Below are positions 4,732 through 16,726 of a stretch of 30,731 nucleotides of DNA, piece after piece. The position numbers and the translations under genes are program-made. A model generated the notes under the pieces. That model saw only the letters and a program-made list of their open reading frames with translations. It was not told where the DNA came from and did no database searches. Where the stretch lies: NCBI GenBank assembly GCA_964646805.1, contig CAZYFL010000001.1, positions 1 to 30,731 on the forward strand, given 5' to 3'. Numbering within the stretch: the first letter of the stretch is position 1; each line of letters begins with the position of its first letter. This DNA comes from an uncultured Elusimicrobiaceae bacterium (GTDB lineage Bacteria > Elusimicrobiota > Elusimicrobia > Elusimicrobiales > UBA9959).

Positions 4732-5934
4732 ATGGAAGTTCAGATTGAACCTTCATTGATATCCGAGGTTCGCAGATTCGGCGGATTTGACGCGGCTGCG
4801 TGCTACAATTGCGGCAGCTGCGCCGCCGTCTGCGCCTTGTCAAAAGATAATGCCATGTTTCCGCGCAACAGCATGAGATATGTGCAACTGGGACTGAGAA
4901 AGCCTTTATCAGGGAGCCTTGACCCCTGGCTGTGTTATTATTGCGGCGATTGCGCCACAACCTGTCCGAGACAGACCGAACCCGGCGAATCAATGATGAC
5001 CCTCAGACGGTATCTCATGTCCGTTTATGACTGGACGGGACTCTCTTCAAAATTTTATCGGTCAAAGTCGTGGCAAATAGGGGCGATTTTCCTGGCGGGC
5101 GCTTTAGTCCTGCTTCCAGCCGCGCTTATTCCCGCGTCTTTTGTGGCTGATTTTCATCAGAATTTAAGCGCTTCCAGGATCATGGAATTCGGCCATCTTC
5201 TTGAATTTACCTTAATATCCACGCTGGGTTTATTTGTTCTTCTCCCCAACATGTTCCGCATGTACTGGTTTGCCATGCACGCGGACAGCGATTTTAATGT
5301 ATGGAAAATTCCGTCGGCGCTGCTCCGGGACGGCCCTGGGTATGTCAGGAGCGAAAACAAGAAGATCAGGCTTTCCCCTGGTTTGTTTTTAAGGGAAGCC
5401 GTGACGCCGCTCCTTCATGGCGTCTTCCAGATAAAATTTCTGGAGTGCGCGGCGACGGCTAAAAACCGCTGGATAAAACACTGGCTGATCGCATCGGGAT
5501 ACATGCTGATGCTGGCGATGATAATTTTTCTGGGCTGGTTCAAAACGCTGGATTACCCGATCTATCATCCCGTGAGATTCCTTGGATATTATGCCACCGT
5601 CATTCTGGTCGTTTTTACCGCGGATGCGCTGATAGGGCGTATCAGGAAACGCGAGCAGGCGCACAAATTTAGCGAGTTAAGCGACTGGCTGTTTCTAATA
5701 TGGCTGTTTTTGATGGCGGCCAGCGCGCTGGCTGTTTATGTATTCATGAGCCTGGGGCTTGGGCGGATTGTTTACTACGCATACGTTTTCCATTTAATGG
5801 TGCTTGTCCAGTGGGCGCTCGTTATAGTTCCTTTCGGGAAATGGATACATTTCATGTATCGTCCGCTTGCGATTTATCTGCAATCAGTCAGGGAAAGAGC
5901 CTTAAAGGAATGCGCGGACAGGGTGTCGGCATGA
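4732..5934 (+). CDS. qmoC: QmoC-like membrane subunit (HdrC-like 2x[4Fe-4S] N-terminus plus HdrE/NarI-like transmembrane domain)
   Basis: CYNCGSCAAVC and CYYCGDCATTCP motifs, followed by several hydrophobic helices carrying His residues (RWIKHWLI, VFHLMVL...PFGKWIHFMYRP). Confidence 0.8.
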   Translation: MEVQIEPSLISEVRRFGGFDAAACYNCGSCAAVCALSKDNAMFPRNSMRYVQLGLRKPLSGSLDPWLCYYCGDCATTCPRQTEPGESMMTLRRYLMSVYDWTGLSSKFYRSKSWQIGAIFLAGALVLLPAALIPASFVADFHQNLSASRIMEFGHLLEFTLISTLGLFVLLPNMFRMYWFAMHADSDFNVWKIPSALLRDGPGYVRSENKKIRLSPGLFLREAVTPLLHGVFQIKFLECAATAKNRWIKHWLIASGYMLMLAMIIFLGWFKTLDYPIYHPVRFLGYYATVILVVFTADALIGRIRKREQAHKFSELSDWLFLIWLFLMAASALAVYVFMSLGLGRIVYYAYVFHLMVLVQWALVIVPFGKWIHFMYRPLAIYLQSVRERALKECADRVSA

Positions 5935-8900
5935 ACGCCGCACCCAAAAGCAACGGAGGTAAAATCGGCGCCGCCCTTGTGGTGGGCGGCGGCATAGGCG
6001 GAATGCAGGCATCGCTTGATCTTGCAGCCGCCGGCATTAAGGTTTATCTGATTGATTCGGGTCCCTGCATCGGCGGAGTGATGGCCCAGTTGGATAAAAC
6101 ATTCCCCACCAATGATTGTGCGATGTGCACAATGGCGCCGCGGCTGGTTGAAGTAAGCGCGCACAAAGACATTAAATTAATCACGCTGGCTGAGGTGGAC
6201 ACCATAACAGGGGAGGCCGGCAGTTTTACGGCAACTCTGAAAATAAAGCCGCGTTTTGTAGATGAGGAAAAATGCAACGGCTGCGGGGCATGCGTTCTGG
6301 TTTGCCCTATAGGCAGGATACAGCCTTCCAGTGACAAAAAAAACCCCCAGCCGTTGGCGGATGAGTATAACATGGGTTTGTCCTCCAGGCCTGCGATATA
6401 CATACCGTATCCTCAGGCCATACCTAATAAAGCCGTACTTGACTCGGCTAACTGCCTTTATTTTAAAACCGGCAAATGTAGCCTGTGCAAAAAAGTCTGC
6501 AAGGTTGACGCCATTGATTTTGAACAAAAAGAAAAACCGATTACCCTTAACGCGGGAGCGATAATACTGACGCCCGGCTATGAACTGTTTGACGCCGGAT
6601 TAAAGCCCGAATATGGGTATGGCGGCTTTAAAAACGTTCTGGCGTCTTTGGAATTTGAGAGAATACTGTCTGCTTCCGGCCCGTTTCAGGGCAAAATACT
6701 GAGGCCGTCCGACAAGACCGAGCCTAAAAAAATCGCCTTTATACAATGCATCGGTTCGCGCGACTGCGAAAGAGACTATTGCTCTGCGGTCTGCTGCATG
6801 TACGCCACAAAAGAGGCGCTTCTTGCCAAAGAACATCTTGGGGAAAAGCTGGAATGCGATATTTATTTCATGGATTTGCGCGCTTTCAGCAAGGGATTTG
6901 AGGAGTACTATTTAAGAGCCAGGAAGAACGGGATCAACTACATAAGATGCCGGCCCCCGTCCGTAGAAGAAGTTCCGCAGACTAAAAACCTGATTATCAA
7001 ATATGTGGCCGAAGATGAAAAAAAGGCGTCGCGCGAATATGACCTGGTGGTATTATCGGCGGGCCTCAGGCCTCCCAGGCATAGCGGGGAACTGGCCGCG
7101 AAGTTCGGCCTTGTGTTAAATAAGCATGGTTTTTGCGCAAACAGCGTTTTTGCGCCGGTTGATTCGCCAAAGCCCGGAATTTTTACCGCCGGCGCGTTTA
7201 CGGGACCCAAAGACATTCCTGAAACCGTTATTCAGGCGAGTTCCGCCGCGGCGAGGGCGCTGGAACTGCTGTCTGAGGCAAAAGGCTCGCGTATCTCAAA
7301 AAAAGAATATCCCCTTGAAACGGATATTTCGGGGCAAGAGCCGCGGGTCGGGATTTTCATATGTCACTGCGGCACAAACATAGCCGGCGTGGTAAATGTA
7401 GAAGAAGTGGCGGAATACGCAAAGAAACTGCCGAATGTCGTATATGCCGATAATATTCTTTATGCCTGCGCTAATGATAGCCAGGAAAAAATCAAAAAAA
7501 CAATTATCGGGCAGAAATTAAACCGCGTTATCGTGGCGGCATGCACTCCAAGGACCCATGAGTCTTTGTTCAGAAACACAATAAGGGAAGCCGGCTTAAA
7601 CTCTTATCTTTTTGAAATGGCAAATATCAGGGACCAGTGTTCCTGGGTGCATATGCATGAGCCTGGGAAGGCCACAAAAAAAGCCAAAGATCTGGTGCGC
7701 ATGGCATTGTCCAAAGCGAGGCTTATAGAGCCTCTGTATAGAAAGAACGTGCCGATAAGCAAAGGAGTTGTTGTTCTTGGCGGGGGATTGGCCGGAATGA
7801 CTGCGGCGCTGAGTCTTGCAAACCAGGGTTTTGACGTCCATTTGATTGAAAAGCAGGCGGCATTGGGCGGGAATTTGCGCAAACTCCATTATCTGTCTGA
7901 TGTGAGTTCCAAACCGCAACAATATCTGGAAACCATTACTGAGCGTGTCAGCCGGAATAAAAAAATCCATATTCACGTAAACGCAAAAATCCCGGTCATT
8001 GAAGGATTTATCGGCAACTTCACCACAAAGCTGTCGGATAACGGGGAATCCGGCGGGGAAATAAAGCATGGGGCGATAGTAGTGGCCACAGGCGCCGGGG
8101 AGCACAAGCCCGGCGAATATCTGTACGGCAAGAATCCCAATGTCTTAACACAACTTGAACTGGAAGAACGGTTAGCCAATGACGGCAGGAGCTTTTTAAG
8201 CGCCGTAGGCCGTGCGCCTAAAACAGTGGTTATGATTCAATGTGTCGGCTCGCGCGAGACTGCCCGTCCCTATTGCAGCCGCCTGTGCTGCAATCAGGCG
8301 GTTAAAAATGCGTTAAAAATTAAGGAACTGAGCCCGGAAACAAACGTATATATTCTGTACCGGGATATGAGAACATACGGCTTTGGGGAAGGTTATTATA
8401 CGCAAGCCAGACAGGAAGGCGTGGTGTTCATAAGATACGATGAAAACAAAAAACCCGAATTAGCGGAGCATTCAGGAAATTTATTATCGATTAAATGTTT
8501 TGAGCCTATTTTGCGCATGGACATTGTCTTAAACGCGGATTTGGCGGTTTTATCAGCCGCGGTCGTCCCGCAGCCGGAGAATAAAGAGCTTGCCCAGATG
8601 CTTAAAGTTCCTCTTGATGCTAACGGATTTTTCCTTGAGGCTCATATGAAACTCAGGCCGGTGGATTTCGCCAATGACGGCATATTTTTGTGTGGTATGG
8701 CGCATTTCCCAAAAGCTATTGACGAGACTATTGCGCAGGCAAATGCCGCCGCCGCGCGGGTGGCGGCAATACTTTCAAACGACACTATGGAACTTGACGC
8801 CAATATTTCAAGCGTCATTGATGAAAACTGCGACGGCTGCGCCTACTGCGTTGACCCTTGTCCCTATAAGGCCGTCACACTGATTGAATACATGAAGAAC

Positions 8901-9050
8901 GGCGCGATAAAGAAAACCGTTGAGGTCAACTCAAGCCTCTGCAAGGGCTGCGGAGTCTGCCAGGGCACCTGCCCGAAGAAGGCCGTAGTAGTGAAAGGTT
9001 TTAAGCTGGAGCAGCTTTCCGCCATGGTGGACGGCTTGTTAAAAGAGTAG
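5931..9050 (+). CDS. hdrA: Large two-module HdrA-family flavoprotein (QmoA+QmoB-like fusion, about 1039 aa)
   Basis: Start at ATG 5931 (ATGA overlap with the upstream stop). Module 1: VVGGGIGG, LDKTFPTNDCAMC, inserted ferredoxin, CIGSRD..YCSAVCC. Module 2: RVGIFICHCG, ACTPRTH, NIRDQCSWVH, VLGGGLAG, CVGSRE..YCSRLCC, and C-terminal CDGCAYCVDPCP / CKGCGVCQGTCP. Confidence 0.92.
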   Translation: MNAAPKSNGGKIGAALVVGGGIGGMQASLDLAAAGIKVYLIDSGPCIGGVMAQLDKTFPTNDCAMCTMAPRLVEVSAHKDIKLITLAEVDTITGEAGSFTATLKIKPRFVDEEKCNGCGACVLVCPIGRIQPSSDKKNPQPLADEYNMGLSSRPAIYIPYPQAIPNKAVLDSANCLYFKTGKCSLCKKVCKVDAIDFEQKEKPITLNAGAIILTPGYELFDAGLKPEYGYGGFKNVLASLEFERILSASGPFQGKILRPSDKTEPKKIAFIQCIGSRDCERDYCSAVCCMYATKEALLAKEHLGEKLECDIYFMDLRAFSKGFEEYYLRARKNGINYIRCRPPSVEEVPQTKNLIIKYVAEDEKKASREYDLVVLSAGLRPPRHSGELAAKFGLVLNKHGFCANSVFAPVDSPKPGIFTAGAFTGPKDIPETVIQASSAAARALELLSEAKGSRISKKEYPLETDISGQEPRVGIFICHCGTNIAGVVNVEEVAEYAKKLPNVVYADNILYACANDSQEKIKKTIIGQKLNRVIVAACTPRTHESLFRNTIREAGLNSYLFEMANIRDQCSWVHMHEPGKATKKAKDLVRMALSKARLIEPLYRKNVPISKGVVVLGGGLAGMTAALSLANQGFDVHLIEKQAALGGNLRKLHYLSDVSSKPQQYLETITERVSRNKKIHIHVNAKIPVIEGFIGNFTTKLSDNGESGGEIKHGAIVVATGAGEHKPGEYLYGKNPNVLTQLELEERLANDGRSFLSAVGRAPKTVVMIQCVGSRETARPYCSRLCCNQAVKNALKIKELSPETNVYILYRDMRTYGFGEGYYTQARQEGVVFIRYDENKKPELAEHSGNLLSIKCFEPILRMDIVLNADLAVLSAAVVPQPENKELAQMLKVPLDANGFFLEAHMKLRPVDFANDGIFLCGMAHFPKAIDETIAQANAAAARVAAILSNDTMELDANISSVIDENCDGCAYCVDPCPYKAVTLIEYMKNGAIKKTVEVNSSLCKGCGVCQGTCPKKAVVVKGFKLEQLSAMVDGLLKE

Positions 9051-9054
9051 TTTT

Positions 9055-9510
9055 ATGGAAAACACCCCCGAATCAGCGATTGACACGGTTGCGGCTGGAA
9101 ACGTGTTTGAACCGGTTATTGTGGCGTTTTGCTGCAACTGGTGTTCCTACACCGGCGCAGATCTCGCGGGAACCTCCCGGTTTCAGTATCCGGCCAATAT
9201 CAGGATAGTACGGGTGATGTGTTCGGGCATGGTGCATCCGAACCTGGTAATAGACGCTTTCACCAAGGGCGCCGATGGTGTGATTATCTGCGGGTGCCAC
9301 CATGGCGACTGCCACTATATCGACGGAAACCTAAAGTGCGAAAAGCGCGTTGAGGCAATTAAGCTTTTGCTGGAAGATTTCGGCATTGAACAGGACCGGT
9401 TCAGGCTGGAATGGATTTCAGCTTCGGAGGGGCCCAGGTTCGCGCAGGTTATGACGGACATGACCGGGCAGGTTAGAAAACTCGGGCCGAGCCCGTATAA
9501 GGGAGGCTGA
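9055..9510 (+). CDS. mvhD: Methyl-viologen-reducing hydrogenase delta subunit ([2Fe-2S])
   Basis: IVAFCCNWCSYTGADLAG, RVMCSGMV, GADGV..GCHHGDCHY and ISASEG motifs. Confidence 0.93.
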   Translation: MENTPESAIDTVAAGNVFEPVIVAFCCNWCSYTGADLAGTSRFQYPANIRIVRVMCSGMVHPNLVIDAFTKGADGVIICGCHHGDCHYIDGNLKCEKRVEAIKLLLEDFGIEQDRFRLEWISASEGPRFAQVMTDMTGQVRKLGPSPYKGG

Positions 9511-9732: not shown

Positions 9733-10683
9733 ATGGCGGTAAAAGTAGCTGAAGAATGGCTTAATATATGCGGAGGATGCGAGGTTTCCATACTGGATAT
9801 AGGAGAACCGCTGGTTGAGATTCTGCCGCAGCTTGAGTTCGTGCATATGCCGGTACTGATGGATAATAAATATTACGGGCAGACAGGGGATAAACCGAAC
9901 CTAGAGATTCCCGGCGCGGATGTGGGCATAATCTCCGGCGGAGTACGCAACGAGAAGGAAAAGCATGTGGCATTGGAAATGCGCAAAAAATGCAAGACCG
10001 TAATTTCCCTCGGGTCCTGCGCCTGCTACGGCGGCATTCCGGCTCTGGCCAACATGTCCCCGAATGCGGAGCTCCTGGATAAAGTTTACAGGCAGAGCAA
10101 AAGCACCGAACCCGCCGAAACGCCGAAAGAAAATCTGCCTCCCCTTCTGGATCGGGTTTATGCGCTGGACGAAGTGATAAAGGTAGACATTTACATCCCG
10201 GGCTGTCCGACTTCGCCGGACTGGATCAAGGCCGCGATAACAGCCCTTTTAACCGGCAAGCCGTTTACGATGCCGGATAAGAGCGTCTGCGACGAATGCC
10301 CCACAAAACGCGAAAAGAAAGCCGCCGGCGGACAGATTAAGCGGTCGCTTGAAGGCGTTCAGTTCAAGCAGGGCGAACCGTGGGAAAATACCCGGTGTTA
10401 TATGGAGCAGGGGCATCTGTGCCTGGGCCCCGTAACCAGGGCCGGCTGCGCCGGCATCACCACTGAAGCCGGCGAATCGCCGGCGCCGCGCTGTATCAAG
10501 GGTTACATGCCCTGCAGAGGGTGTTTCGGCCCGGTAAAAAAGGATTCAAACCCCCTCGTTGACATGATGACGGCAATTTCCTCCATCGGCCTTGAAGCCG
10601 GCCAGGTGGCCGACCGCAGGGCTTTGCTTAACCGCTATATCGGCAGCCAGGGAAGATTACGACCGCTTCCCGCCAGGAAATAA
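9733..10683 (+). CDS. mvhG: Group 3c [NiFe]-hydrogenase small subunit
   Basis: WLNICGGCE, GSCACYGG, YIPGCP, CDEC, CYMEQGHLCLGP, and CIKGYMPCRGCFGP motifs. RBS AGGAGG. Confidence 0.92.
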   Translation: MAVKVAEEWLNICGGCEVSILDIGEPLVEILPQLEFVHMPVLMDNKYYGQTGDKPNLEIPGADVGIISGGVRNEKEKHVALEMRKKCKTVISLGSCACYGGIPALANMSPNAELLDKVYRQSKSTEPAETPKENLPPLLDRVYALDEVIKVDIYIPGCPTSPDWIKAAITALLTGKPFTMPDKSVCDECPTKREKKAAGGQIKRSLEGVQFKQGEPWENTRCYMEQGHLCLGPVTRAGCAGITTEAGESPAPRCIKGYMPCRGCFGPVKKDSNPLVDMMTAISSIGLEAGQVADRRALLNRYIGSQGRLRPLPARK

Positions 10684-10713: not shown

Positions 10714-12159
10714 ATGGGAAAAATAATCACCATCGCGCCCGTATCAAGGCTTGAAGGGCACTTAAAAGTGTCAGTGAATCTCGATGATGCCGGCAATGTG
10801 TCCGACACGTTCGTGCAGGCGGTTGAACTGCGGGGGTTTGAAAAATTTTGTATAGGACGCCCCGTTGAGGAGATGCCGAGGATCGTCACTTCCATCTGCG
10901 GCGTCTGCCCCTGGTCGCATCACCTGGCGTCGGCCAAAGCCTGCGACGCGGTTTTCGGGGTTACACCCCCGCCTACCGGCAGGAAACTCCGGGAACTCTG
11001 CAATGCCATAGCCTACTGCGAGGAGCATATACTCCATTTCTTCTTCCTTGCCGGAGCGGACTTCGTGCTCGGCCCCGGCGCGGATTACAAGATCCGGAAC
11101 ATTTTCGGCATTGTCAAAGCCGCTCCGGAACTTTCGGCCAGGGTGGTAAGAGCAAGGCATCTGGGCGTGAGGATGCTCAATGTGGTCTCGGGCAAATCCA
11201 TACACCCCGTCACCGCCGTGCCGGGCGGGTTTTCAAAACCGCTTCGCGAAGAAGAGCGCAAGCTGATACTGCCAATGGCCGGAGAAGTGCTTGAGTTCGC
11301 CAAAATGGCCATAGCCTGGGCGAAAAAAGACATTTTCCCCAGATATCCGGATGCGGTTAAGACCATCGGAATAATAAAGACCGGCTTCATGGCCACCGTG
11401 GACGCGGGCGGCGCCATGAATCTCTATGACGGCAAGATACGGCTTATGAAGGCCGACGGCACGCACATAGACTTTGACGATTCAAACTACCTGGACTATA
11501 TAGGCGAGAAAGTCCTGCCCTGGTCATACATGAAGTTCCCCTACGCCAAAACCTGGGGCGAGGGGTTCTCCATGGATCTTGACAACCCGAAGGGCATCTA
11601 CAGGACCAATACGCTGGCGAGGGTAAATGCCTGCGAGAGCATCCCTACTCCTCTCGCCCAGGCCGAGCTTGAAGAGTTCAGGAAGCTTTTCGGCAGGCCC
11701 GTGCAGGCCACGCTCCTCTACAATTGGGCTAGGCTCATAGAGCTGCTCTACAATGCGGAGCGGACCGTGGAGCTCCTTAACGACAAGGAAATAACCGGCG
11801 CCGAAACGCGCGTGCCGGTAACGCCCAGGGCCGCCAGGGGCGTGGGCCACGTTGAGGCCCCGAGAGGTACGCTCTTCCACGACTACGAAACCGACGAGAA
11901 CGGCATGGTCAGGAACGTGAACCTTATCGTCGGGACCACTCATAACAACGGGCCCATAAACATGTCGGTGAAGCAGACCGCCATGGCGTTGATAAGGGAC
12001 GGCAAATACGACGAAGAAATTCTCAACAAGATTGAGATGTCCATCCGCGCCTATGACCCCTGCGTTTCCTGCGCCACGCACGACCTGGACGGGAAAATAA
12101 TGGTCAGCGTAGACATAAACGGTCCGGACGGAAAACTAATAAAAAATTTCCGAAATTAG
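10714..12159 (+). CDS. mvhA: Group 3c [NiFe]-hydrogenase large subunit
   Basis: SRLEGH, ELRGFE, L1 PRIVTSICGVCPWSHH, VEAPRGTLFH, LIVGTTHNN, and L2 RAYDPCVSCATH followed by a cleavable 25-aa C-terminal extension. Cys, not Sec. Confidence 0.95.
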   Translation: MGKIITIAPVSRLEGHLKVSVNLDDAGNVSDTFVQAVELRGFEKFCIGRPVEEMPRIVTSICGVCPWSHHLASAKACDAVFGVTPPPTGRKLRELCNAIAYCEEHILHFFFLAGADFVLGPGADYKIRNIFGIVKAAPELSARVVRARHLGVRMLNVVSGKSIHPVTAVPGGFSKPLREEERKLILPMAGEVLEFAKMAIAWAKKDIFPRYPDAVKTIGIIKTGFMATVDAGGAMNLYDGKIRLMKADGTHIDFDDSNYLDYIGEKVLPWSYMKFPYAKTWGEGFSMDLDNPKGIYRTNTLARVNACESIPTPLAQAELEEFRKLFGRPVQATLLYNWARLIELLYNAERTVELLNDKEITGAETRVPVTPRAARGVGHVEAPRGTLFHDYETDENGMVRNVNLIVGTTHNNGPINMSVKQTAMALIRDGKYDEEILNKIEMSIRAYDPCVSCATHDLDGKIMVSVDINGPDGKLIKNFRN

Positions 12160-12178: not shown

Positions 12179-12733
12179 ATGAATAAACAGGATAATCTTT
12201 CCGGGTTGCATCCGTCCGAAGAGCGGACGGAATACGATACGGACGGGAAAAGAACGCTGGTGATAGGCTGCGGGAACGTGTTACTCGGCGATGACGGTTT
12301 CGGCCCCGCGGTCATAAAAGCCCTTTCAACCGGGTCCGTGCCGCCGCACGTTGCGCTTATAGACGCCGGCACCGGTATAAGGAAGGTTCTCTTCAATATT
12401 GTGCTTTCAGAGCAAAAACCGGAAAAGATAATTATTCTCGACGCGGTCCGCAAAGAGGGACGCCGGCCGGGAGAAGTGTTTGAGCTGGCGCTAAATGAAA
12501 TGCCGCCGCAAAAGGCGGAGGACTTTTCCGTCCACCACCTGCCCACCACCAATATGCTGCGCGAACTTCAGAAGGACTGTGGCGTAAAAGTAATGATAAT
12601 AGCGGCGCAGGTTGCCATGCTTCCCTGTGAAATGTCCTGTGGTTTATCCGGGCCCGTAGCAAGAGCCGTCCTGAAAGCGAAGAAAATAGCAGCAAGGGAA
12701 CTGTGTGGGCAAACGAGCGGAGTGAGGCAATGA
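12179..12733 (+). CDS. Hydrogenase maturation endopeptidase (HycI/HyaD family)
   Basis: VIGCGNVLLGDDGFG, IDAG, IILDAV and SVHHLP motifs. Directly after mvhA. Confidence 0.92.
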   Translation: MNKQDNLSGLHPSEERTEYDTDGKRTLVIGCGNVLLGDDGFGPAVIKALSTGSVPPHVALIDAGTGIRKVLFNIVLSEQKPEKIIILDAVRKEGRRPGEVFELALNEMPPQKAEDFSVHHLPTTNMLRELQKDCGVKVMIIAAQVAMLPCEMSCGLSGPVARAVLKAKKIAARELCGQTSGVRQ

Positions 12734-14112
12734 GCGGCTTGATTCCGGAAATATTGCAGACAGAACTCCTGCAGGAGGTACTGGCTCAGACCAGGGAGCC
12801 GTCTTCGGCGGCTGTTTCGGAAATTCTTGACCGCGCGCGGGATAAGAAAGGGCTGGCCCTTAGAGATGTCGGCTATCTGGCGAACCTTAAAGAGCCGGAA
12901 CTCGTCCGCAAACTTTTTCATGCCGCAGCGGTTATAAAGCGGGAAATCTACGGCGAGCGGCTGGTTTTCTTCGCGCCGCTGTATATCTCCGACTATTGTG
13001 TTAACGATTGCGAATATTGTAATTTCCATGCCGGTAACAAGCAACTGGCGCGGCGCAAACTCACTATGGCTGAAGTGGGCGCTCAGACCGCATTCCTGAT
13101 AGACCAGGGACATAAAAGAATCCTGCTTGAGGCAGGCGAAGATCCGGTTAACAATGATATAGAATATATCGTTGATGCCATAAATAAAATATACTCCGTC
13201 CGGACTCCCAAAGGCAATATCCGCCGCATCAATGTTAACATTGCGGCCGCCACGGTGGAAAACTACCGTAAACTCAAAGGGGCCGGCATCGGCACCTATC
13301 AACTTTTTCAGGAGACCTACCACCGGCCGACTTATGAGCGGTTGCATTGCGGTCCGAAGGCGGACTTTGAACGCCAGATTACCGCCCATCTTCGCGCCTT
13401 TGAGGCAGGCATTGACGATGTCGGGGTGGGCGCGCTTTTCGGGCTTTATGACTGGCGGTTTGAGGCGCTTGCGCTGGTCGCGCACAGCCAGTATCTTGAA
13501 AAAACCAATAATGCAGGCCCGCACACTATTTCAGTGCCGCGGATATGCGCGGCGCCAACCGTTGACTATAAACCCCAATACCCCGTCAGCGACGACGATT
13601 TCCTTAAACTGATTGCTATCCTGCGGCTGGCCGTTCCGTATACCGGAATAATTCTCTCTACCAGGGAACGGCCGGAGGTCAGAAAGCTTGCCTTCAAGAT
13701 CGGTATTTCGCAGGCAAGCGCCGGATCGGTTGCCGTTACCGGCGGCTATGGCAAAAAGGAGCGGCAGCCGCAATTTACGATTAATGATGAACGCTCCATG
13801 CAGGACGTAATCAGCGATGTTATAAAAGATAAACATCTGCCCAGTTTCTGCACGGCTTGCTACCGGAGCGGCCGGACCGGCGAGCGCTTTATGGCGCTTG
13901 CCAAGCCGGGGGATATCCATAAATTATGCCGGCCCAACGCAATCATAACTTTCGCCGAATATCTGACCGATTGCGCCACTGACGAACTGCGCAAGAAAGG
14001 CGGCCGCCTCATTGAGGAATCCGTTAACGGAATAGAAGAACTTCCGCTGCGCCGGGAAACCAGGAATCGGCTTGCCCGCATCGCCGCCGGTGAACGGGAT
14101 ATTTATTTCTAA
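12730..14112 (+). CDS. hydG: HydG-type radical SAM tyrosine lyase (CO/CN- synthase)
   Basis: Start at ATG 12730 (ATGA overlap with the protease stop). FAPLYISDYCVNDCEYC (CX3CX2C), QLFQETYH, GPHTISVPR (dangler-Fe His), and C-terminal FCTACYR-x-CRPNA with CX2CX22C spacing, ending GERDIYF. These features separate HydG from ThiH. Confidence 0.9.
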   Translation: MSGLIPEILQTELLQEVLAQTREPSSAAVSEILDRARDKKGLALRDVGYLANLKEPELVRKLFHAAAVIKREIYGERLVFFAPLYISDYCVNDCEYCNFHAGNKQLARRKLTMAEVGAQTAFLIDQGHKRILLEAGEDPVNNDIEYIVDAINKIYSVRTPKGNIRRINVNIAAATVENYRKLKGAGIGTYQLFQETYHRPTYERLHCGPKADFERQITAHLRAFEAGIDDVGVGALFGLYDWRFEALALVAHSQYLEKTNNAGPHTISVPRICAAPTVDYKPQYPVSDDDFLKLIAILRLAVPYTGIILSTRERPEVRKLAFKIGISQASAGSVAVTGGYGKKERQPQFTINDERSMQDVISDVIKDKHLPSFCTACYRSGRTGERFMALAKPGDIHKLCRPNAIITFAEYLTDCATDELRKKGGRLIEESVNGIEELPLRRETRNRLARIAAGERDIYF

Positions 14113-14121
14113 GGAAGAGCT

Positions 14122-15390
14122 ATGTGTTACGCCATTCCCGGCAAAGTGGTGGAAATTAACGGCCAGGTTGCTACGGTTGATTATTACGGCGAATGCAGAA
14201 AAGCATATACCGACCTGACCGAAACTGCCATCGGAGACTATGTCTACGCCCAGGGCGGTTTTATCATCCGGACGGTTCCCGTACCTGAAGCGCGGGAGAT
14301 ACTCTCGGATTGGCGCGGACTTTTCTTCAAACTGCAGGGGATTGACCGGAAACTCACCAGCAACCCGCGCACTATCTACGGACGCGCCAACGCCATCAGA
14401 CATAAATATCAGGGTAATTCCTGTTGTGTCCACGGTATACTGGAATTCTCCAATTATTGCAAAAACAACTGCCTATACTGCGGCATCAGGAATGATAATA
14501 GCTCTGTTACCCGCTACCGGATGACGCCGGAGGAGATCCTGGAGGCGGTTGGCTATGCGGTAGAGAAATTGGGGTTTAAGGCGCTGGTGCTGCAATCCGG
14601 AGAAGATCCGTATTACGATGAGGATAAACTGGAAGGTATTGTCCGGGAGATTCGCGCGCGTTACCCCGTCCTTCTTTTTGTCTCAATAGGGGAACGGCCG
14701 CTGTCAACCTACCGGAAGCTGTACCAGGCCGGCGCGCGCGGGGCGCTTATCAGGTTTGAAACCGCTAACCCGGACATTTATGCCGGTGTAAAACCCGGTT
14801 GCGATCCTGCGCAGCGCGTTAAATTAATAAAAGAGATCGGTGAACTGGGCTATCTGATTATTACGGGTTTCCTGGTGGGATTGCCGGGTGAAACGAATCG
14901 TGACGTCATCAGGAATATCAAACTCACCGGAAAACTCGCAGGCGGCCGTTTTGAGGGGCAGAGGCCGGACAGGCTTGACGCAACTTCCGTTAAGGCGCAG
15001 ACAGGCCCTGTCGCCGAAGCTTCAATGAAGGAGGGGATGTTCTCATTCGGCCCGTTTATCGCTCATCCACGCACGCCGCTGGCAGGTACGCCGCCGCCGG
15101 AATTAAGCCGGATGCTTAATACTATTGCCCAGGCCAGGTTGATGTATCCCGCTGCGCGGATAGTTGTTACCACCGCATTGGAAACACTGGATACCCAAAA
15201 CGGCGCGCGGGAAGGGCTGATGGCCGGAGCCAATTCGCTGATGATAAATATAACGCCAATCAAATACCGCCGGCTCTATGAGATATATCCCAACCGCGCC
15301 GGCGCCGGGGATGACATCCCTGCAAGGATTGATTCCGTCCTGAAACTCCTCCATTCGCTGGGCAGGGCGCCGACCGATATCGGAATCTGA
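14122..15390 (+). CDS. hypC-hydE: Fusion: N-terminal HypC/HupF chaperone domain plus HydE-like (BioB/PylB superfamily) radical SAM domain
   Basis: N-terminus MCYAIPGKVVEI...GDYVYAQGGFII (HypC: MCLAIPGKVVEI...GDYVLVHxGFAI). Then HGILEFSNYCKNNCLYCGIR, YRMTPEEI, VLQSGED, RFETANPDIY, GFLVGLPGET, GPFIAHPRTPL and GANSLMINITPIKYRRLYEIYP, all HydE-like. One continuous 422-aa ORF. Confidence 0.85.
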   Translation: MCYAIPGKVVEINGQVATVDYYGECRKAYTDLTETAIGDYVYAQGGFIIRTVPVPEAREILSDWRGLFFKLQGIDRKLTSNPRTIYGRANAIRHKYQGNSCCVHGILEFSNYCKNNCLYCGIRNDNSSVTRYRMTPEEILEAVGYAVEKLGFKALVLQSGEDPYYDEDKLEGIVREIRARYPVLLFVSIGERPLSTYRKLYQAGARGALIRFETANPDIYAGVKPGCDPAQRVKLIKEIGELGYLIITGFLVGLPGETNRDVIRNIKLTGKLAGGRFEGQRPDRLDATSVKAQTGPVAEASMKEGMFSFGPFIAHPRTPLAGTPPPELSRMLNTIAQARLMYPAARIVVTTALETLDTQNGAREGLMAGANSLMINITPIKYRRLYEIYPNRAGAGDDIPARIDSVLKLLHSLGRAPTDIGI

Positions 15391-15464: not shown

Positions 15465-15869
15465 ATGCATGAATGGGCTTTGGCTGAATCCGTTATAAAA
15501 GCGGCGGTTGAACACGCCGGCGCTGAAAAACTTAAAAAACTTAAAGAGACCGGCGTAGTCTTCGGCGGGCTGCAGGCCATAGACAAAGACGTCTTTGTTT
15601 TCGCGCTGGAGGAGATGCGCAAGCAGTTCCCCTGCGCCAAAGCCTGCAAATTCAAGATAATAAAACAGCCCGCGGCTTTCCGCTGCAAGGCCTGCTCTCA
15701 CGAGTTCACGTTAAAGGGCCTGAAAAAGACAAAAGACGAGGCCGAGTTCATACACTTCGTGCCCGAGATGGCGCATGCCTTCCTGAAATGCCCCAAATGT
15801 AAGAGCCCGGATTTTGAAATTTCCGCCGGGCGCGGCGTCAGTATCAGCTACATCAAGGGGAATAGATGA
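15465..15869 (+). CDS. hypA: Nickel metallochaperone HypA, long Thermococcales-like form
   Basis: MHEWALAESV Ni site, CKAC and CPKC Zn motifs separated by the extended EFIHFVPEMAHAFL segment, and GRGV C-terminus. Confidence 0.92.
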   Translation: MHEWALAESVIKAAVEHAGAEKLKKLKETGVVFGGLQAIDKDVFVFALEEMRKQFPCAKACKFKIIKQPAAFRCKACSHEFTLKGLKKTKDEAEFIHFVPEMAHAFLKCPKCKSPDFEISAGRGVSISYIKGNR

Positions 15870-16726
15870 CTAGCCTGAAAGTTTCAGTTGGCTCGTCTCA
15901 CCGGCGAAAGCCGGTGTCCAGATTCCGACGAGACCTGGATTCCGGCTTTCGCCGGAATGACGGAATAAAAAAATCCGACCCAGCCCGACGATTATGTCAC
16001 TCCAACTGCAATTTTCAGGCTAGTGTTGACCCCAGGCCTTCCGTAATAGAAGAGCGGCTTAAAAAGGTAAAGCGGATCATTGCCGTTACCGGCTGGAAGG
16101 GCGGCATAGGCAAGAGCGTAATTGCCTGCGCGCTGGCGCTGCTGCTTGCAAAAAAGGGCTATAAAACGGGCCTGTTTGATTTGGACTTCGCCGGGGCTTC
16201 CGACCATATAATACTGGGAGCCGGAGGGCTGTTTCCAAAAGAGGAAAAAGGCCTTGAACCGCCGTTGTTTGAAGGCGTGAAGTTTATGTCGGTGGTCTTT
16301 TTCTCGGAGAACAAGGCCGTGCCGCTGCGCGGGGCAAATGTTTCCGACGCAATAATAGAACTGCTGGCTATAACGCAGTGGGGGGAACTGGACTTCCTGG
16401 TGCTGGACATGCCGCCCGGCATAAACGACGCCGCGCTGGATGTCCTGCGCTTCGCGGGAAAGGCCGAAGTGCTGGCCGTGACCACGCCTTCAGTGATAGC
16501 CCGCGACGTGCTGGCGCGGTCGCTGGTTCTTTATCGCGGGCTTAAAGCGCCGGTGCTGGGTGTGTTGGAGAACATGGCGCGCGGCCCGGCGCCAAAGGGC
16601 ATCGCAGCCCGCCTGCGCTTTGATCCCGGGCTTGAAGCGGCGCTTGGCCATCCCGCCGCCCTGATAAAAACCGCTTTTTGCCGCGACCTGATTAGCGCGC
16701 TTAAGATACTTAAACTGGAAGAGTGA
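15866..16726 (+). CDS. hypB: ATPase-type HypB (Mrp/MinD family P-loop ATPase) carrying an in-frame 50-codon MITE insertion
   Basis: DPR..IEERLKKVKRIIAV, deviant Walker A WKGGIGKS, LDLDFAGASDHIILG, PLRG..VSDAIIELL.IT.W.ELDFLVLDMPPG, VLENM. Lacks the CXXC of Fe-S carrier Mrp/ApbC. ATGA-coupled to hypA. Confidence 0.8.
   Translation: MTSLKVSVGSSHRRKPVSRFRRDLDSGFRRNDGIKKSDPARRLCHSNCNFQASVDPRPSVIEERLKKVKRIIAVTGWKGGIGKSVIACALALLLAKKGYKTGLFDLDFAGASDHIILGAGGLFPKEEKGLEPPLFEGVKFMSVVFFSENKAVPLRGANVSDAIIELLAITQWGELDFLVLDMPPGINDAALDVLRFAGKAEVLAVTTPSVIARDVLARSLVLYRGLKAPVLGVLENMARGPAPKGIAARLRFDPGLEAALGHPAALIKTAFCRDLISALKILKLEE
15870..16023. mobile_element. MITE-like element (146 bp plus CTAG duplication) inserted in frame in hypB
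   Basis: ACTAGCCTGAAAGTTTCAGTTGG (15869-15891) and CCAACTGCAATTTTCAGGCTAGT (16002-16024) form a 23-bp inverted repeat with 2 mismatches. CTAG occurs at both ends (15870-15873, 16020-16023). Deleting 150 nt restores ATG ACT AGT GTT GAC CCC AGG (MTSVDPR). Confidence 0.75.
15894..15962. repeat. REP-like palindromic element nested inside the MITE
   Basis: CCGGCGAAAGCCGGtgTCCAG (15901-15921) pairs with CTGGATTCCGGCTTTCGCCGG (15935-15955), with outer CGTC/GACG. Translates as LDSGFRRND, a peptide typical of this palindrome class. Confidence 0.75.

Follow-up and report, generated by a model that had tools for sequence, protein, structure and literature searches.

A complete HydG gene among [NiFe]-hydrogenase maturation genes in an uncultured Elusimicrobiaceae bacterium

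HydG and the surrounding genes

We analysed a 30,731-nucleotide stretch of DNA from an uncultured Elusimicrobiaceae bacterium (GenBank assembly GCA_964646805.1, contig CAZYFL010000001.1, positions 1 to 30,731 of the forward strand; hereafter the window, 30.7 kb), in which a gene for the radical S-adenosylmethionine (SAM) enzyme HydG stands among maturation genes for a [NiFe] hydrogenase. The HydG gene is an intact open reading frame (ORF) at 12730..14112 on the + strand and encodes a complete protein of 460 aa with all catalytic motifs. The protein scored 528.5 bits against the family model TIGR03955 (rSAM_HydG), for which the cut-off is 312.15, and is thus a member of that family. The ThiH model gave 269 bits against a cut-off of 380, and this match ended at about residue 367. 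When aligned with HydG from T. italicus (PDB ID: 4WCX), the protein was 57% identical over its full length (499 bits, query residues 9-460 on chain residues 23-480), and since the alignment reaches the last residue, the C-terminal domain has been kept. HydG from C. hydrogenoformans (PDB ID: 4RTB) could also be aligned. An exact-sequence look-up of the HydG from the window returned no record.

The translation contains the radical-SAM motif CX3CX2C as CVNDCEYC (C90, C94 and C97), H265 within GPHTISVPR, a motif that is identical in 4WCX and 4RTB, and the auxiliary-cluster motif CX2CX22C, which begins with CTAC (C374, C377 and C400) and whose cysteines ThiH lacks. In an alignment of 72 HydGs, all of these residues were found among the 93 near-invariant columns. 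The conserved histidine is a ligand of the fifth, or dangler, iron of HydG (PMC8162317). An earlier, first-pass annotation of this DNA had described a complete HydG rather than a ThiH-like truncation and had pointed to the histidine and the C-terminal cysteine motif, and both descriptions stand. As in known HydGs, the reaction catalysed is almost certainly the conversion of tyrosine to p-cresol, CO and CN on a cysteine-chelated iron.

The start of HydG overlaps the end of the gene for a [NiFe]-specific maturation endopeptidase of the FrhD/HycI type (12179..12733, + strand; TIGR00072 115 bits, TIGR00130 109 bits, PF01750). The overlap reads ATGA at 12730..12733 on the + strand, so that the protease stop codon TGA (12731-12733) shares bases with the HydG start codon ATG (12730-12732), as the first-pass annotation had stated. 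A Shine-Dalgarno sequence, GGAG at 12719-12722, lies 7 bases 5′ of the ATG. The matches to homologues begin at residues 1-8 of the protein, which favours ATG 12730 over an alternative GTG at 12703. From the overlap of start and stop, HydG is probably translationally coupled to the protease.

The other genes of the window were named by their matches to NCBIfam and Pfam profiles, and those discussed here are all on the + strand. The protease is preceded by the large subunit of an Mvh/Vhu-type, group 3c [NiFe] hydrogenase (10714..12159; NF041785 VhuA 432 bits, PF00374), the small subunit of the MvhG/VhuG type (9733..10683; NF045875 226.7 bits, PF01058) and MvhD (9055..9510; PF02662 187.6 bits). 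The large subunit contains the nickel-binding motifs CGVC and DPCVSCATH as well as a 25-residue C-terminal extension, the usual substrate of the protease. It also keeps the arginine of the EAPRG motif, a residue that contacts the cyanide side of the [NiFe] site, and because this usual arginine is present there is no sign of an unusual pocket. HydG is followed by a gene that encodes a HypC domain fused to a HydE-like protein (HypC::HydE, 14122..15390), by the nickel metallochaperone HypA (15465..15869; NF003008 145.6 bits, cut-off 125) and by an ATPase of the Mrp/MinD family (15866..16726), the start of which overlaps the hypA stop codon. The ATPase gave MrpORP/ApbC-type matches from residue 65 onwards, all below their cut-offs, and its first ~64 residues match no family.

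The genes are closely spaced. Counted from MvhA there are 19 nt, the protease, a 4-nt overlap, HydG, 9 nt, HypC::HydE, 74 nt, HypA, a 4-nt overlap and Mrp, and scans for terminators and promoters within this row found nothing above chance. The spacing suggests that the row HdrA-MvhDGA-protease-HydG-HypC::HydE-HypA-Mrp forms one operon. Every [NiFe] maturation function is covered by it except HypD, HypE and HypF, for which no profile match was obtained in the window. What the window does hold of the canonical HypABCDEF set is HypA, the protease, a HypC domain and, in the place of HypB, the Mrp/MinD ATPase, which probably substitutes for it. The window was also searched for HydF, for HydE of the canonical type and for an [FeFe] hydrogenase, and none was found.

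Two further genes of the row lie 5′ of MvhD. A double HdrA-like flavoprotein is encoded at 5700..9050 (NF040770 978 bits), and a membrane iron-sulfur subunit similar to QmoC and HdrC at 4732..5934 (NF038018 155.7 bits, below cut-off). The two ORFs overlap by 235 nt (5700-5934). The family match of HdrA begins at residue 91, and the true start of HdrA probably lies downstream of 5700.

Gene neighbourhoods of related HydGs

Relatives of the HydG were collected by a scan of one genome per species, which gave 80 loci with HydGs 51-70% identical to that of the window. The window and the 80 species genomes make up a set of 81 loci, which became 84 when three loci found later (L084-L086) were included. 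ORFs in the loci were called and probed with the proteins of the window and with the E. coli Hyp proteins, and the remaining ORFs were clustered and their representatives named by NCBIfam and Pfam. A gene was counted as near when it was within 10 kb of HydG, i.e. in a 20-kb view, and many of the loci are short. The relatives come from Planctomycetota, Omnitrophota, Elusimicrobiota, Firestonebacteria, many bacteria of the candidate phyla radiation (CPR), DPANN archaea and Thermodesulfobacteriota.

A HydE fused to HypC, recognised by the start MC[YL]xIP that is the HypC signature, adjoins HydG in at least 57 of the 81 loci, one of them a triple fusion (L039). [NiFe] subunits, the endopeptidase or HypA were found within 10 kb of HydG in 29 of the 81 loci, and in 32 of 84 when the three later loci were added. 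HydF or the [FeFe] hydrogenase HydA was present in 12 of the 81 (L011, L012, L013, L017, L021, L036, L042, L059, L061, L073, L079 and L080), and in none of the 84 related loci did HydF or HydA occur in one view together with [NiFe] parts. The two associations follow the type of HydE. Nickel-related parts were near 26 of 55 fused HydEs and none of 11 unfused ones (Fisher p = 0.002), and HydF or HydA was near 2 of 55 fused HydEs and 6 of 11 unfused ones (p = 1e-4). The latter contrast is reinforced by two more HydFs beside unfused HydEs, which were found after these counts had been made.

The placement of HydG within [NiFe]-specific maturation genes, which the first-pass annotation had described for the window, recurs across phyla and with three hydrogenase groups. 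The module of HydG and HypC::HydE is carried by group 3c Mvh/Hdr operons (the window, L001, L002 and L016), by group 3b operons with beta and gamma subunits (e.g. L006, L020 and L057) and by membrane-bound group 4 Mbh operons with Mrp-antiporter subunits (L004 and L018). The order hypA-hypB-hypC::hydE-hydG-protease in L057 follows that of canonical hyp operons, except that two radical-SAM genes take the places of hypD and hypE. As far as gene order and gene fusion are concerned, the tie between HydG and [NiFe] maturation is strong.

The closest relatives, L084-L086 (67-70% identity), show the order HdrA-MvhD-MvhG-MvhA-protease-HdrC-HdrB-short HypA-HydG, and the start of HydG overlaps hypA in all three, even where the fusion gene is not adjacent (L084 and L085). 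With the protease overlapped in the window and hypA in these relatives, HydG appears to be coupled to different [NiFe]-specific genes depending on the lineage. The short HypA of the closest relatives is a protein of 82-84 aa that consists of the N-terminal MHEW half without the zinc-finger part, and its gene is directly 5′ of HydG and overlaps its start. Short HypAs are encoded at L001:8252-8500, L002:9738-9986, L016:9745-9999, L084:9756-10004, L085:9778-10026 and L086:9750-10001. Unlike these relatives, the window has a full-length HypA, and it is placed after the fusion gene.

HypD, HypE and HypF were searched for in the flanks of the 81 HydGs with E. coli proteins as probes in blastp and phmmer, and none was found in 1.09 Mb of sequence, a result for which there is no baseline from ordinary [NiFe] loci. 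The same E. coli probes did detect HypA, GTPase-type HypB, HypC domains and proteases in these flanks. The proteins behind weak phmmer matches to E. coli HypF in L070 and HypE in L058 are a Sua5/YrdC protein and a member of the AIR-synthase family, respectively, and not Hyp proteins.

Phylogeny of HydG

A tree of 110 sequences was built from the HydGs of the loci, 27 representatives found by searching 1.8 billion cluster representatives, both HydGs from the PDB and E. coli ThiH as the outgroup. The HydG of the window groups with those of L001, L002 and L005 (support 99), and all four are [NiFe]-linked. It also falls within a 97-supported clade that contains HydF/HydA-linked HydGs and is sister to the T. 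italicus group. HydGs of Firestonebacteria that are encoded beside an [FeFe] hydrogenase and HydF (L011, L012, L021 and L023) are in the same 95-supported group of 26. Two further HydF-linked groups, L059/L073/L079 and L036/L042/L061, branch among CPR HydGs with ties to HypC::HydE and [NiFe] genes.

When the HydF/HydA-linked HydGs were forced into one clade in a 44-row set, 190 log-likelihood units were lost and the constraint was rejected by the approximately unbiased (AU) test (p = 9e-5), for which the groups had been defined by gene context but after the tree was seen. No alignment column separated [NiFe]-linked from [FeFe]-linked HydGs, and the best one reached a frequency difference of 0.61 at a non-catalytic position near the N-terminus. 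The tree and the AU test thus rule out a dedicated clade of [NiFe]-type HydGs, which the first-pass annotation had proposed as support for a [NiFe] role. The same annotation had named, as a refutation, nesting among ordinary HydGs together with an [FeFe] hydrogenase and hydF in the genome that account for it, and the nesting is what the tree shows. A fusion of HydF and HydG (P0125, 861 aa) has a HydG part that is 59% identical to the HydG of the window. The interspersed tree suggests an ordinary HydG that has moved between [NiFe] and [FeFe] contexts several times, and HydG appears to be interchangeable between the two maturation pathways.

The HypC::HydE fusion

The strongest clue is the fusion gene that follows HydG, which the first-pass annotation had not weighed, and the dedicated clade is that of this partner and not that of HydG. 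In the protein, residues 1-75 form a HypC domain (MCYAIPGK...; PF01455 55 bits, TIGR00074 46.3 bits, just below the cut-off of 48) and are followed by a HydE-type radical-SAM domain with the motif CKNNCLYC (PF04055; TIGR03956 233 bits, below the cut-off of 254.6). Among PDB entries, it matched HydE 7O1O with 222 bits and HypC from T. kodakarensis, 2Z1C, with E = 7e-11. Compared to T. maritima HydE there is an insert of ~40 residues. Cys2 of HypC, in MCYAIPGK, is kept.

In a tree of HydE domains, a branch with support 100 places T. maritima HydE and all HydF/HydA-linked HydEs on one side and all HypC-fused HydEs, including that of the window, on the other. Three unfused HydE-like copies from Micrarchaeia (L058, L062 and L070), each beside HydG, are nested among the fused ones, and tblastn did not find a separate HypC-like coding sequence in these three loci. 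The HypC domain may have been lost secondarily in these copies.

An Omnitrophota contig, L083, which extends L013, carries both types of HydE. It has the order Rex-NfnAB-like-HydG-HypC::HydE, and 5-13 kb downstream, at L083:13728-19070, are Rex-HydF-sensor kinase-HydB-[FeFe] HydA-HydC and a second, unfused HydE. The unfused HydE belongs to the canonical clade and is 47% identical to T. maritima HydE and 36% identical to the neighbouring fusion. The presence of this second, canonical HydE indicates that the fusion protein is a paralogue with its own job and is not the HydE of that organism's [FeFe] hydrogenase. The single HydG in view on L083 may serve both pathways.

HydG itself also takes part in fusions. 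HypC-HydE-HydG triple fusions were found in P0124 (identical to L039:8717-11362) and P0126, with lengths of 881 and 906 aa, and P0128 (803 aa) is a HydE-HydG fusion without HypC.

A possible radical-SAM route to the [NiFe] iron centre

The six Hyp proteins are described as required for [NiFe] maturation across all organisms in a 2025 review, in which the CO ligand's source under anaerobic conditions is named as the most pressing open question and radical-SAM enzymes are absent from the text (PMC12134894). A survey of archaeal hydrogenases from 2024 treated HydE, HydF and HydG only as [FeFe] maturases and reported that most [FeFe]-bearing archaea are without them (PMC11216029). Full-text literature searches found no paper that links HydG or HydE to [NiFe] maturation. 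The chemistry of the individual parts has been described. HydG cleaves two tyrosines. With the first, Fe(Cys)(CO)(CN) is formed on the dangler iron; with the second, this becomes Fe(Cys)(CO)2(CN) and leaves the enzyme. A reactive Fe(I)(CO)2(CN)S unit is formed when HydE breaks the S-C bond of the cysteine in this product (PMC8162317). The [NiFe] large subunit receives the Fe(CN)2CO group from HypC, which carries it on its N-terminal cysteine (PMC12134894).

Taken together, the observations lead us to give about an even chance to an ordinary, catalytically complete HydG having been recruited to the maturation of the group 3c (Mvh-type) [NiFe] hydrogenase, for which it would supply a tyrosine-derived Fe-CO/CN unit. 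Slightly less than even confidence is placed in the further step that no HypD, HypE or HypF takes part in building the iron half of the [NiFe] site, with HydG making all diatomic ligands from tyrosine and the HypC-fused HydE paralogue converting and loading the product. The extension of this route from the present bacterium to many uncultured anaerobes of the Planctomycetota, Omnitrophota, Elusimicrobiota, CPR, DPANN and Thermodesulfobacteriota is held with the same reserve, a little short of an even wager. The gene content points to an undescribed way of making the [NiFe] iron centre, the CO ligand of which may come from HydG.

In such a pathway, HydG would cleave tyrosine with SAM into CO and CN-, which would be assembled on the cysteine-chelated dangler iron as Fe(II)(Cys)(CO)2(CN). 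HypC::HydE would take up this product, and its HydE domain would remove the cysteine backbone by radical S-C cleavage. Instead of two units dimerising, the mononuclear Fe-CO/CN fragment would be held on Cys2 of the fused HypC domain, which would then dock on the apo large subunit and pass on the Fe-CO/CN unit. HypA and the Mrp-type ATPase would insert nickel, after which the protease would trim the C-terminus of the large subunit. HydG and HypC::HydE would thus replace HypD, HypE and HypF, and both CO and CN would come from tyrosine. In sister lineages the same type of HydG works for HydE/HydF/[FeFe] systems, and in genomes with both pathways it may supply each of them.

The proposed route shares features with three known systems. 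As in the HydE/HydF/HydG system, which matures the H-cluster of [FeFe] hydrogenases, HydG here has the radical-SAM TIM barrel and the C-terminal auxiliary-cluster domain with the same cysteine motifs and histidine, and it is in one clade with HydGs encoded beside HydF and HydA. It differs from that system in that the window is without HydF and HydA, HydG stands at the end of an Mvh-type [NiFe] operon with the protease, HypC::HydE, HypA and Mrp, and the presumed client is the [NiFe] large subunit and not HydF. With the HypCDEF system of E. coli and T. kodakarensis it would have in common that a HypC-type Cys2 chaperone brings a mononuclear iron carrying CO and CN to the apo large subunit, and also the later steps, i.e. 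nickel insertion by HypA and a HypB-type ATPase followed by proteolytic trimming, and the operon position of the radical-SAM pair matches that of hypCDE. In contrast to HypCDEF, the window and 84 related loci show no HypD scaffold, HypE or HypF, HypC is present only as part of a fusion with a HydE paralogue, and the ligands would derive from tyrosine by radical-SAM chemistry and not from carbamoyl phosphate. HypX likewise gives [NiFe] maturation a dedicated carbonyl source as an accessory enzyme, but it is an unrelated protein that decarbonylates formyl-CoA made from N10-formyl-tetrahydrofolate, under oxic conditions and alongside HypCDEF (PMC12134894).

Several observations weigh against the recruitment of HydG to [NiFe] maturation as proposed here. 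One is the ligand mismatch, as the HydG product carries 2 CO and 1 CN and the [NiFe] site 1 CO and 2 CN (PMC8162317). The first-pass annotation had remarked on this stoichiometry, in agreement with the literature, and no editing step is known that would turn 2 CO : 1 CN into 1 CO : 2 CN, as the conversion to Fe(CN)2CO would demand. Since each tyrosine yields one CO and one CN, spare cyanide would be available and an exchange of ligands is conceivable. HydG forms no separate clade and has no [NiFe]-specific residues, and HydG itself thus gives no signal of a new role. No [NiFe] part was found within 10 kb of HydG in 52 of the 81 loci, many of which are short. In L013, L017 and L083 the module has HydF and an [FeFe] hydrogenase at a distance of 5-13 kb, so HydG there clearly can serve the [FeFe] pathway. 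Finally, RNA evidence of co-transcription was sought, and the sequence was found only in groundwater DNA runs.

The same observations bear on other explanations of the locus. HydG might give only CO, or an Fe-CO unit, with HypD, HypE and HypF encoded elsewhere in the genome providing the two cyanides from carbamoyl phosphate and HypC::HydE acting as an adaptor to HypD. Genes for Hyp proteins are frequently scattered over genomes, which fits this explanation, and so does the 2 CO : 1 CN content of the HydG product, which is unlike what a [NiFe] site needs. The source of CO in anaerobes is the part of the pathway that is unknown and the source of cyanide is well established (PMC12134894), which again favours a role limited to CO. 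However, HypD, HypE and HypF were missing from the 1.09 Mb around the 81 HydGs, even beside hypA, hypB, the protease and a HypC domain. The HydG product already carries cyanide, and CPR and DPANN lineages with their small genomes would need to keep two ligand systems. We consider a CO-only role unlikely.

An exclusive role in [FeFe] maturation, with HydF and HydA elsewhere in the genome and the [NiFe] placement reflecting co-regulation of hydrogen metabolism or a chance gene order, seems to us more unlikely still. The sequence of HydG is indistinguishable from those of [FeFe]-linked HydGs and interleaved with them in the tree, the HydF-HydG fusion P0125 has a close HydG part, and HydF and HydA are found near the module in L013, L017 and L083, all of which would be expected if HydG worked for [FeFe] hydrogenases only. 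Such a role would leave unexplained that the start of HydG overlaps a [NiFe]-specific protease in the window and hypA in L084-L086, and that in the next gene HydE is joined to HypC, which is a chaperone specific to [NiFe] enzymes. Three [NiFe] groups and more than 10 phyla show the association, HydF and HydA were never in the same 20-kb view as [NiFe] parts, and the [FeFe] enzyme of L083 has a canonical HydE of its own. In favour of a 2-iminoacetate synthase of the ThiH type, which would act in thiamine synthesis, or of a gene remnant without activity, one can point to ThiH as the next closest family and to L020, where the protease and HydG are separated by a ThiF/MoeB-like gene. Against this, the protein does not reach the ThiH cut-off and its match to that model stops near residue 367. 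The C-terminal auxiliary-cluster domain is kept whole together with His265, and both are near-invariant; the reading frame has no interruption, and homologues in different phyla are still 51-70% identical. Motifs and scores thus rule out a ThiH-like enzyme or a dead gene for practical purposes.

If HydG and HypC::HydE do build the iron half of the [NiFe] site, the [NiFe] cofactor would have a second, radical-SAM route of synthesis. The question of the CO ligand's source under anoxic conditions would then be answered for these lineages, and HydG in [NiFe] operons is a concrete candidate enzyme for the anaerobic CO ligand. Two hydrogenase maturation systems that have so far been treated as unrelated would share parts, and [NiFe] maturation in genome-reduced CPR and DPANN organisms would be explained. 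New chemistry should be looked for in the HypC::HydE paralogue and not in HydG.

Other genes near the module

Some further genes were noted beside the module in the related loci. In an Omnitrophota locus, a gene for a ThiF/MoeB-type adenylyltransferase is found between the [NiFe] protease and HydG (L020:9228-9980). A radical-SAM protein of ~730 aa, with an HxsC-like C-terminal domain and no clear family, is encoded 3′ of HydG, HypC::HydE and a short-chain dehydrogenase/reductase in several Omnitrophota (L013:13590-15800, L017:13582-15774 and L083:6961-9141).

Genes of the glycine cleavage system were found near the module in three loci. GcvT, GcvH, GcvP halves and a lipoate ligase are encoded just 3′ of the HydG-HypC::HydE pair at L018:10735-15881, and GcvT is encoded 3′ of HydG-HypC::HydE at L006:19283-20410. 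L001:1878-3164, directly 5′ of the [NiFe] small subunit, encodes a NuoG-like iron-sulfur protein with a fused GcvH domain. A 142-bit match to an [FeFe] hydrogenase profile in L001 was to this NuoG-like protein with the GcvH domain, and it has no H-cluster domain. The glycine cleavage system helps to build the bridge of the H-cluster in [FeFe] maturation, and the recurrence of its genes near the module may not be due to chance.

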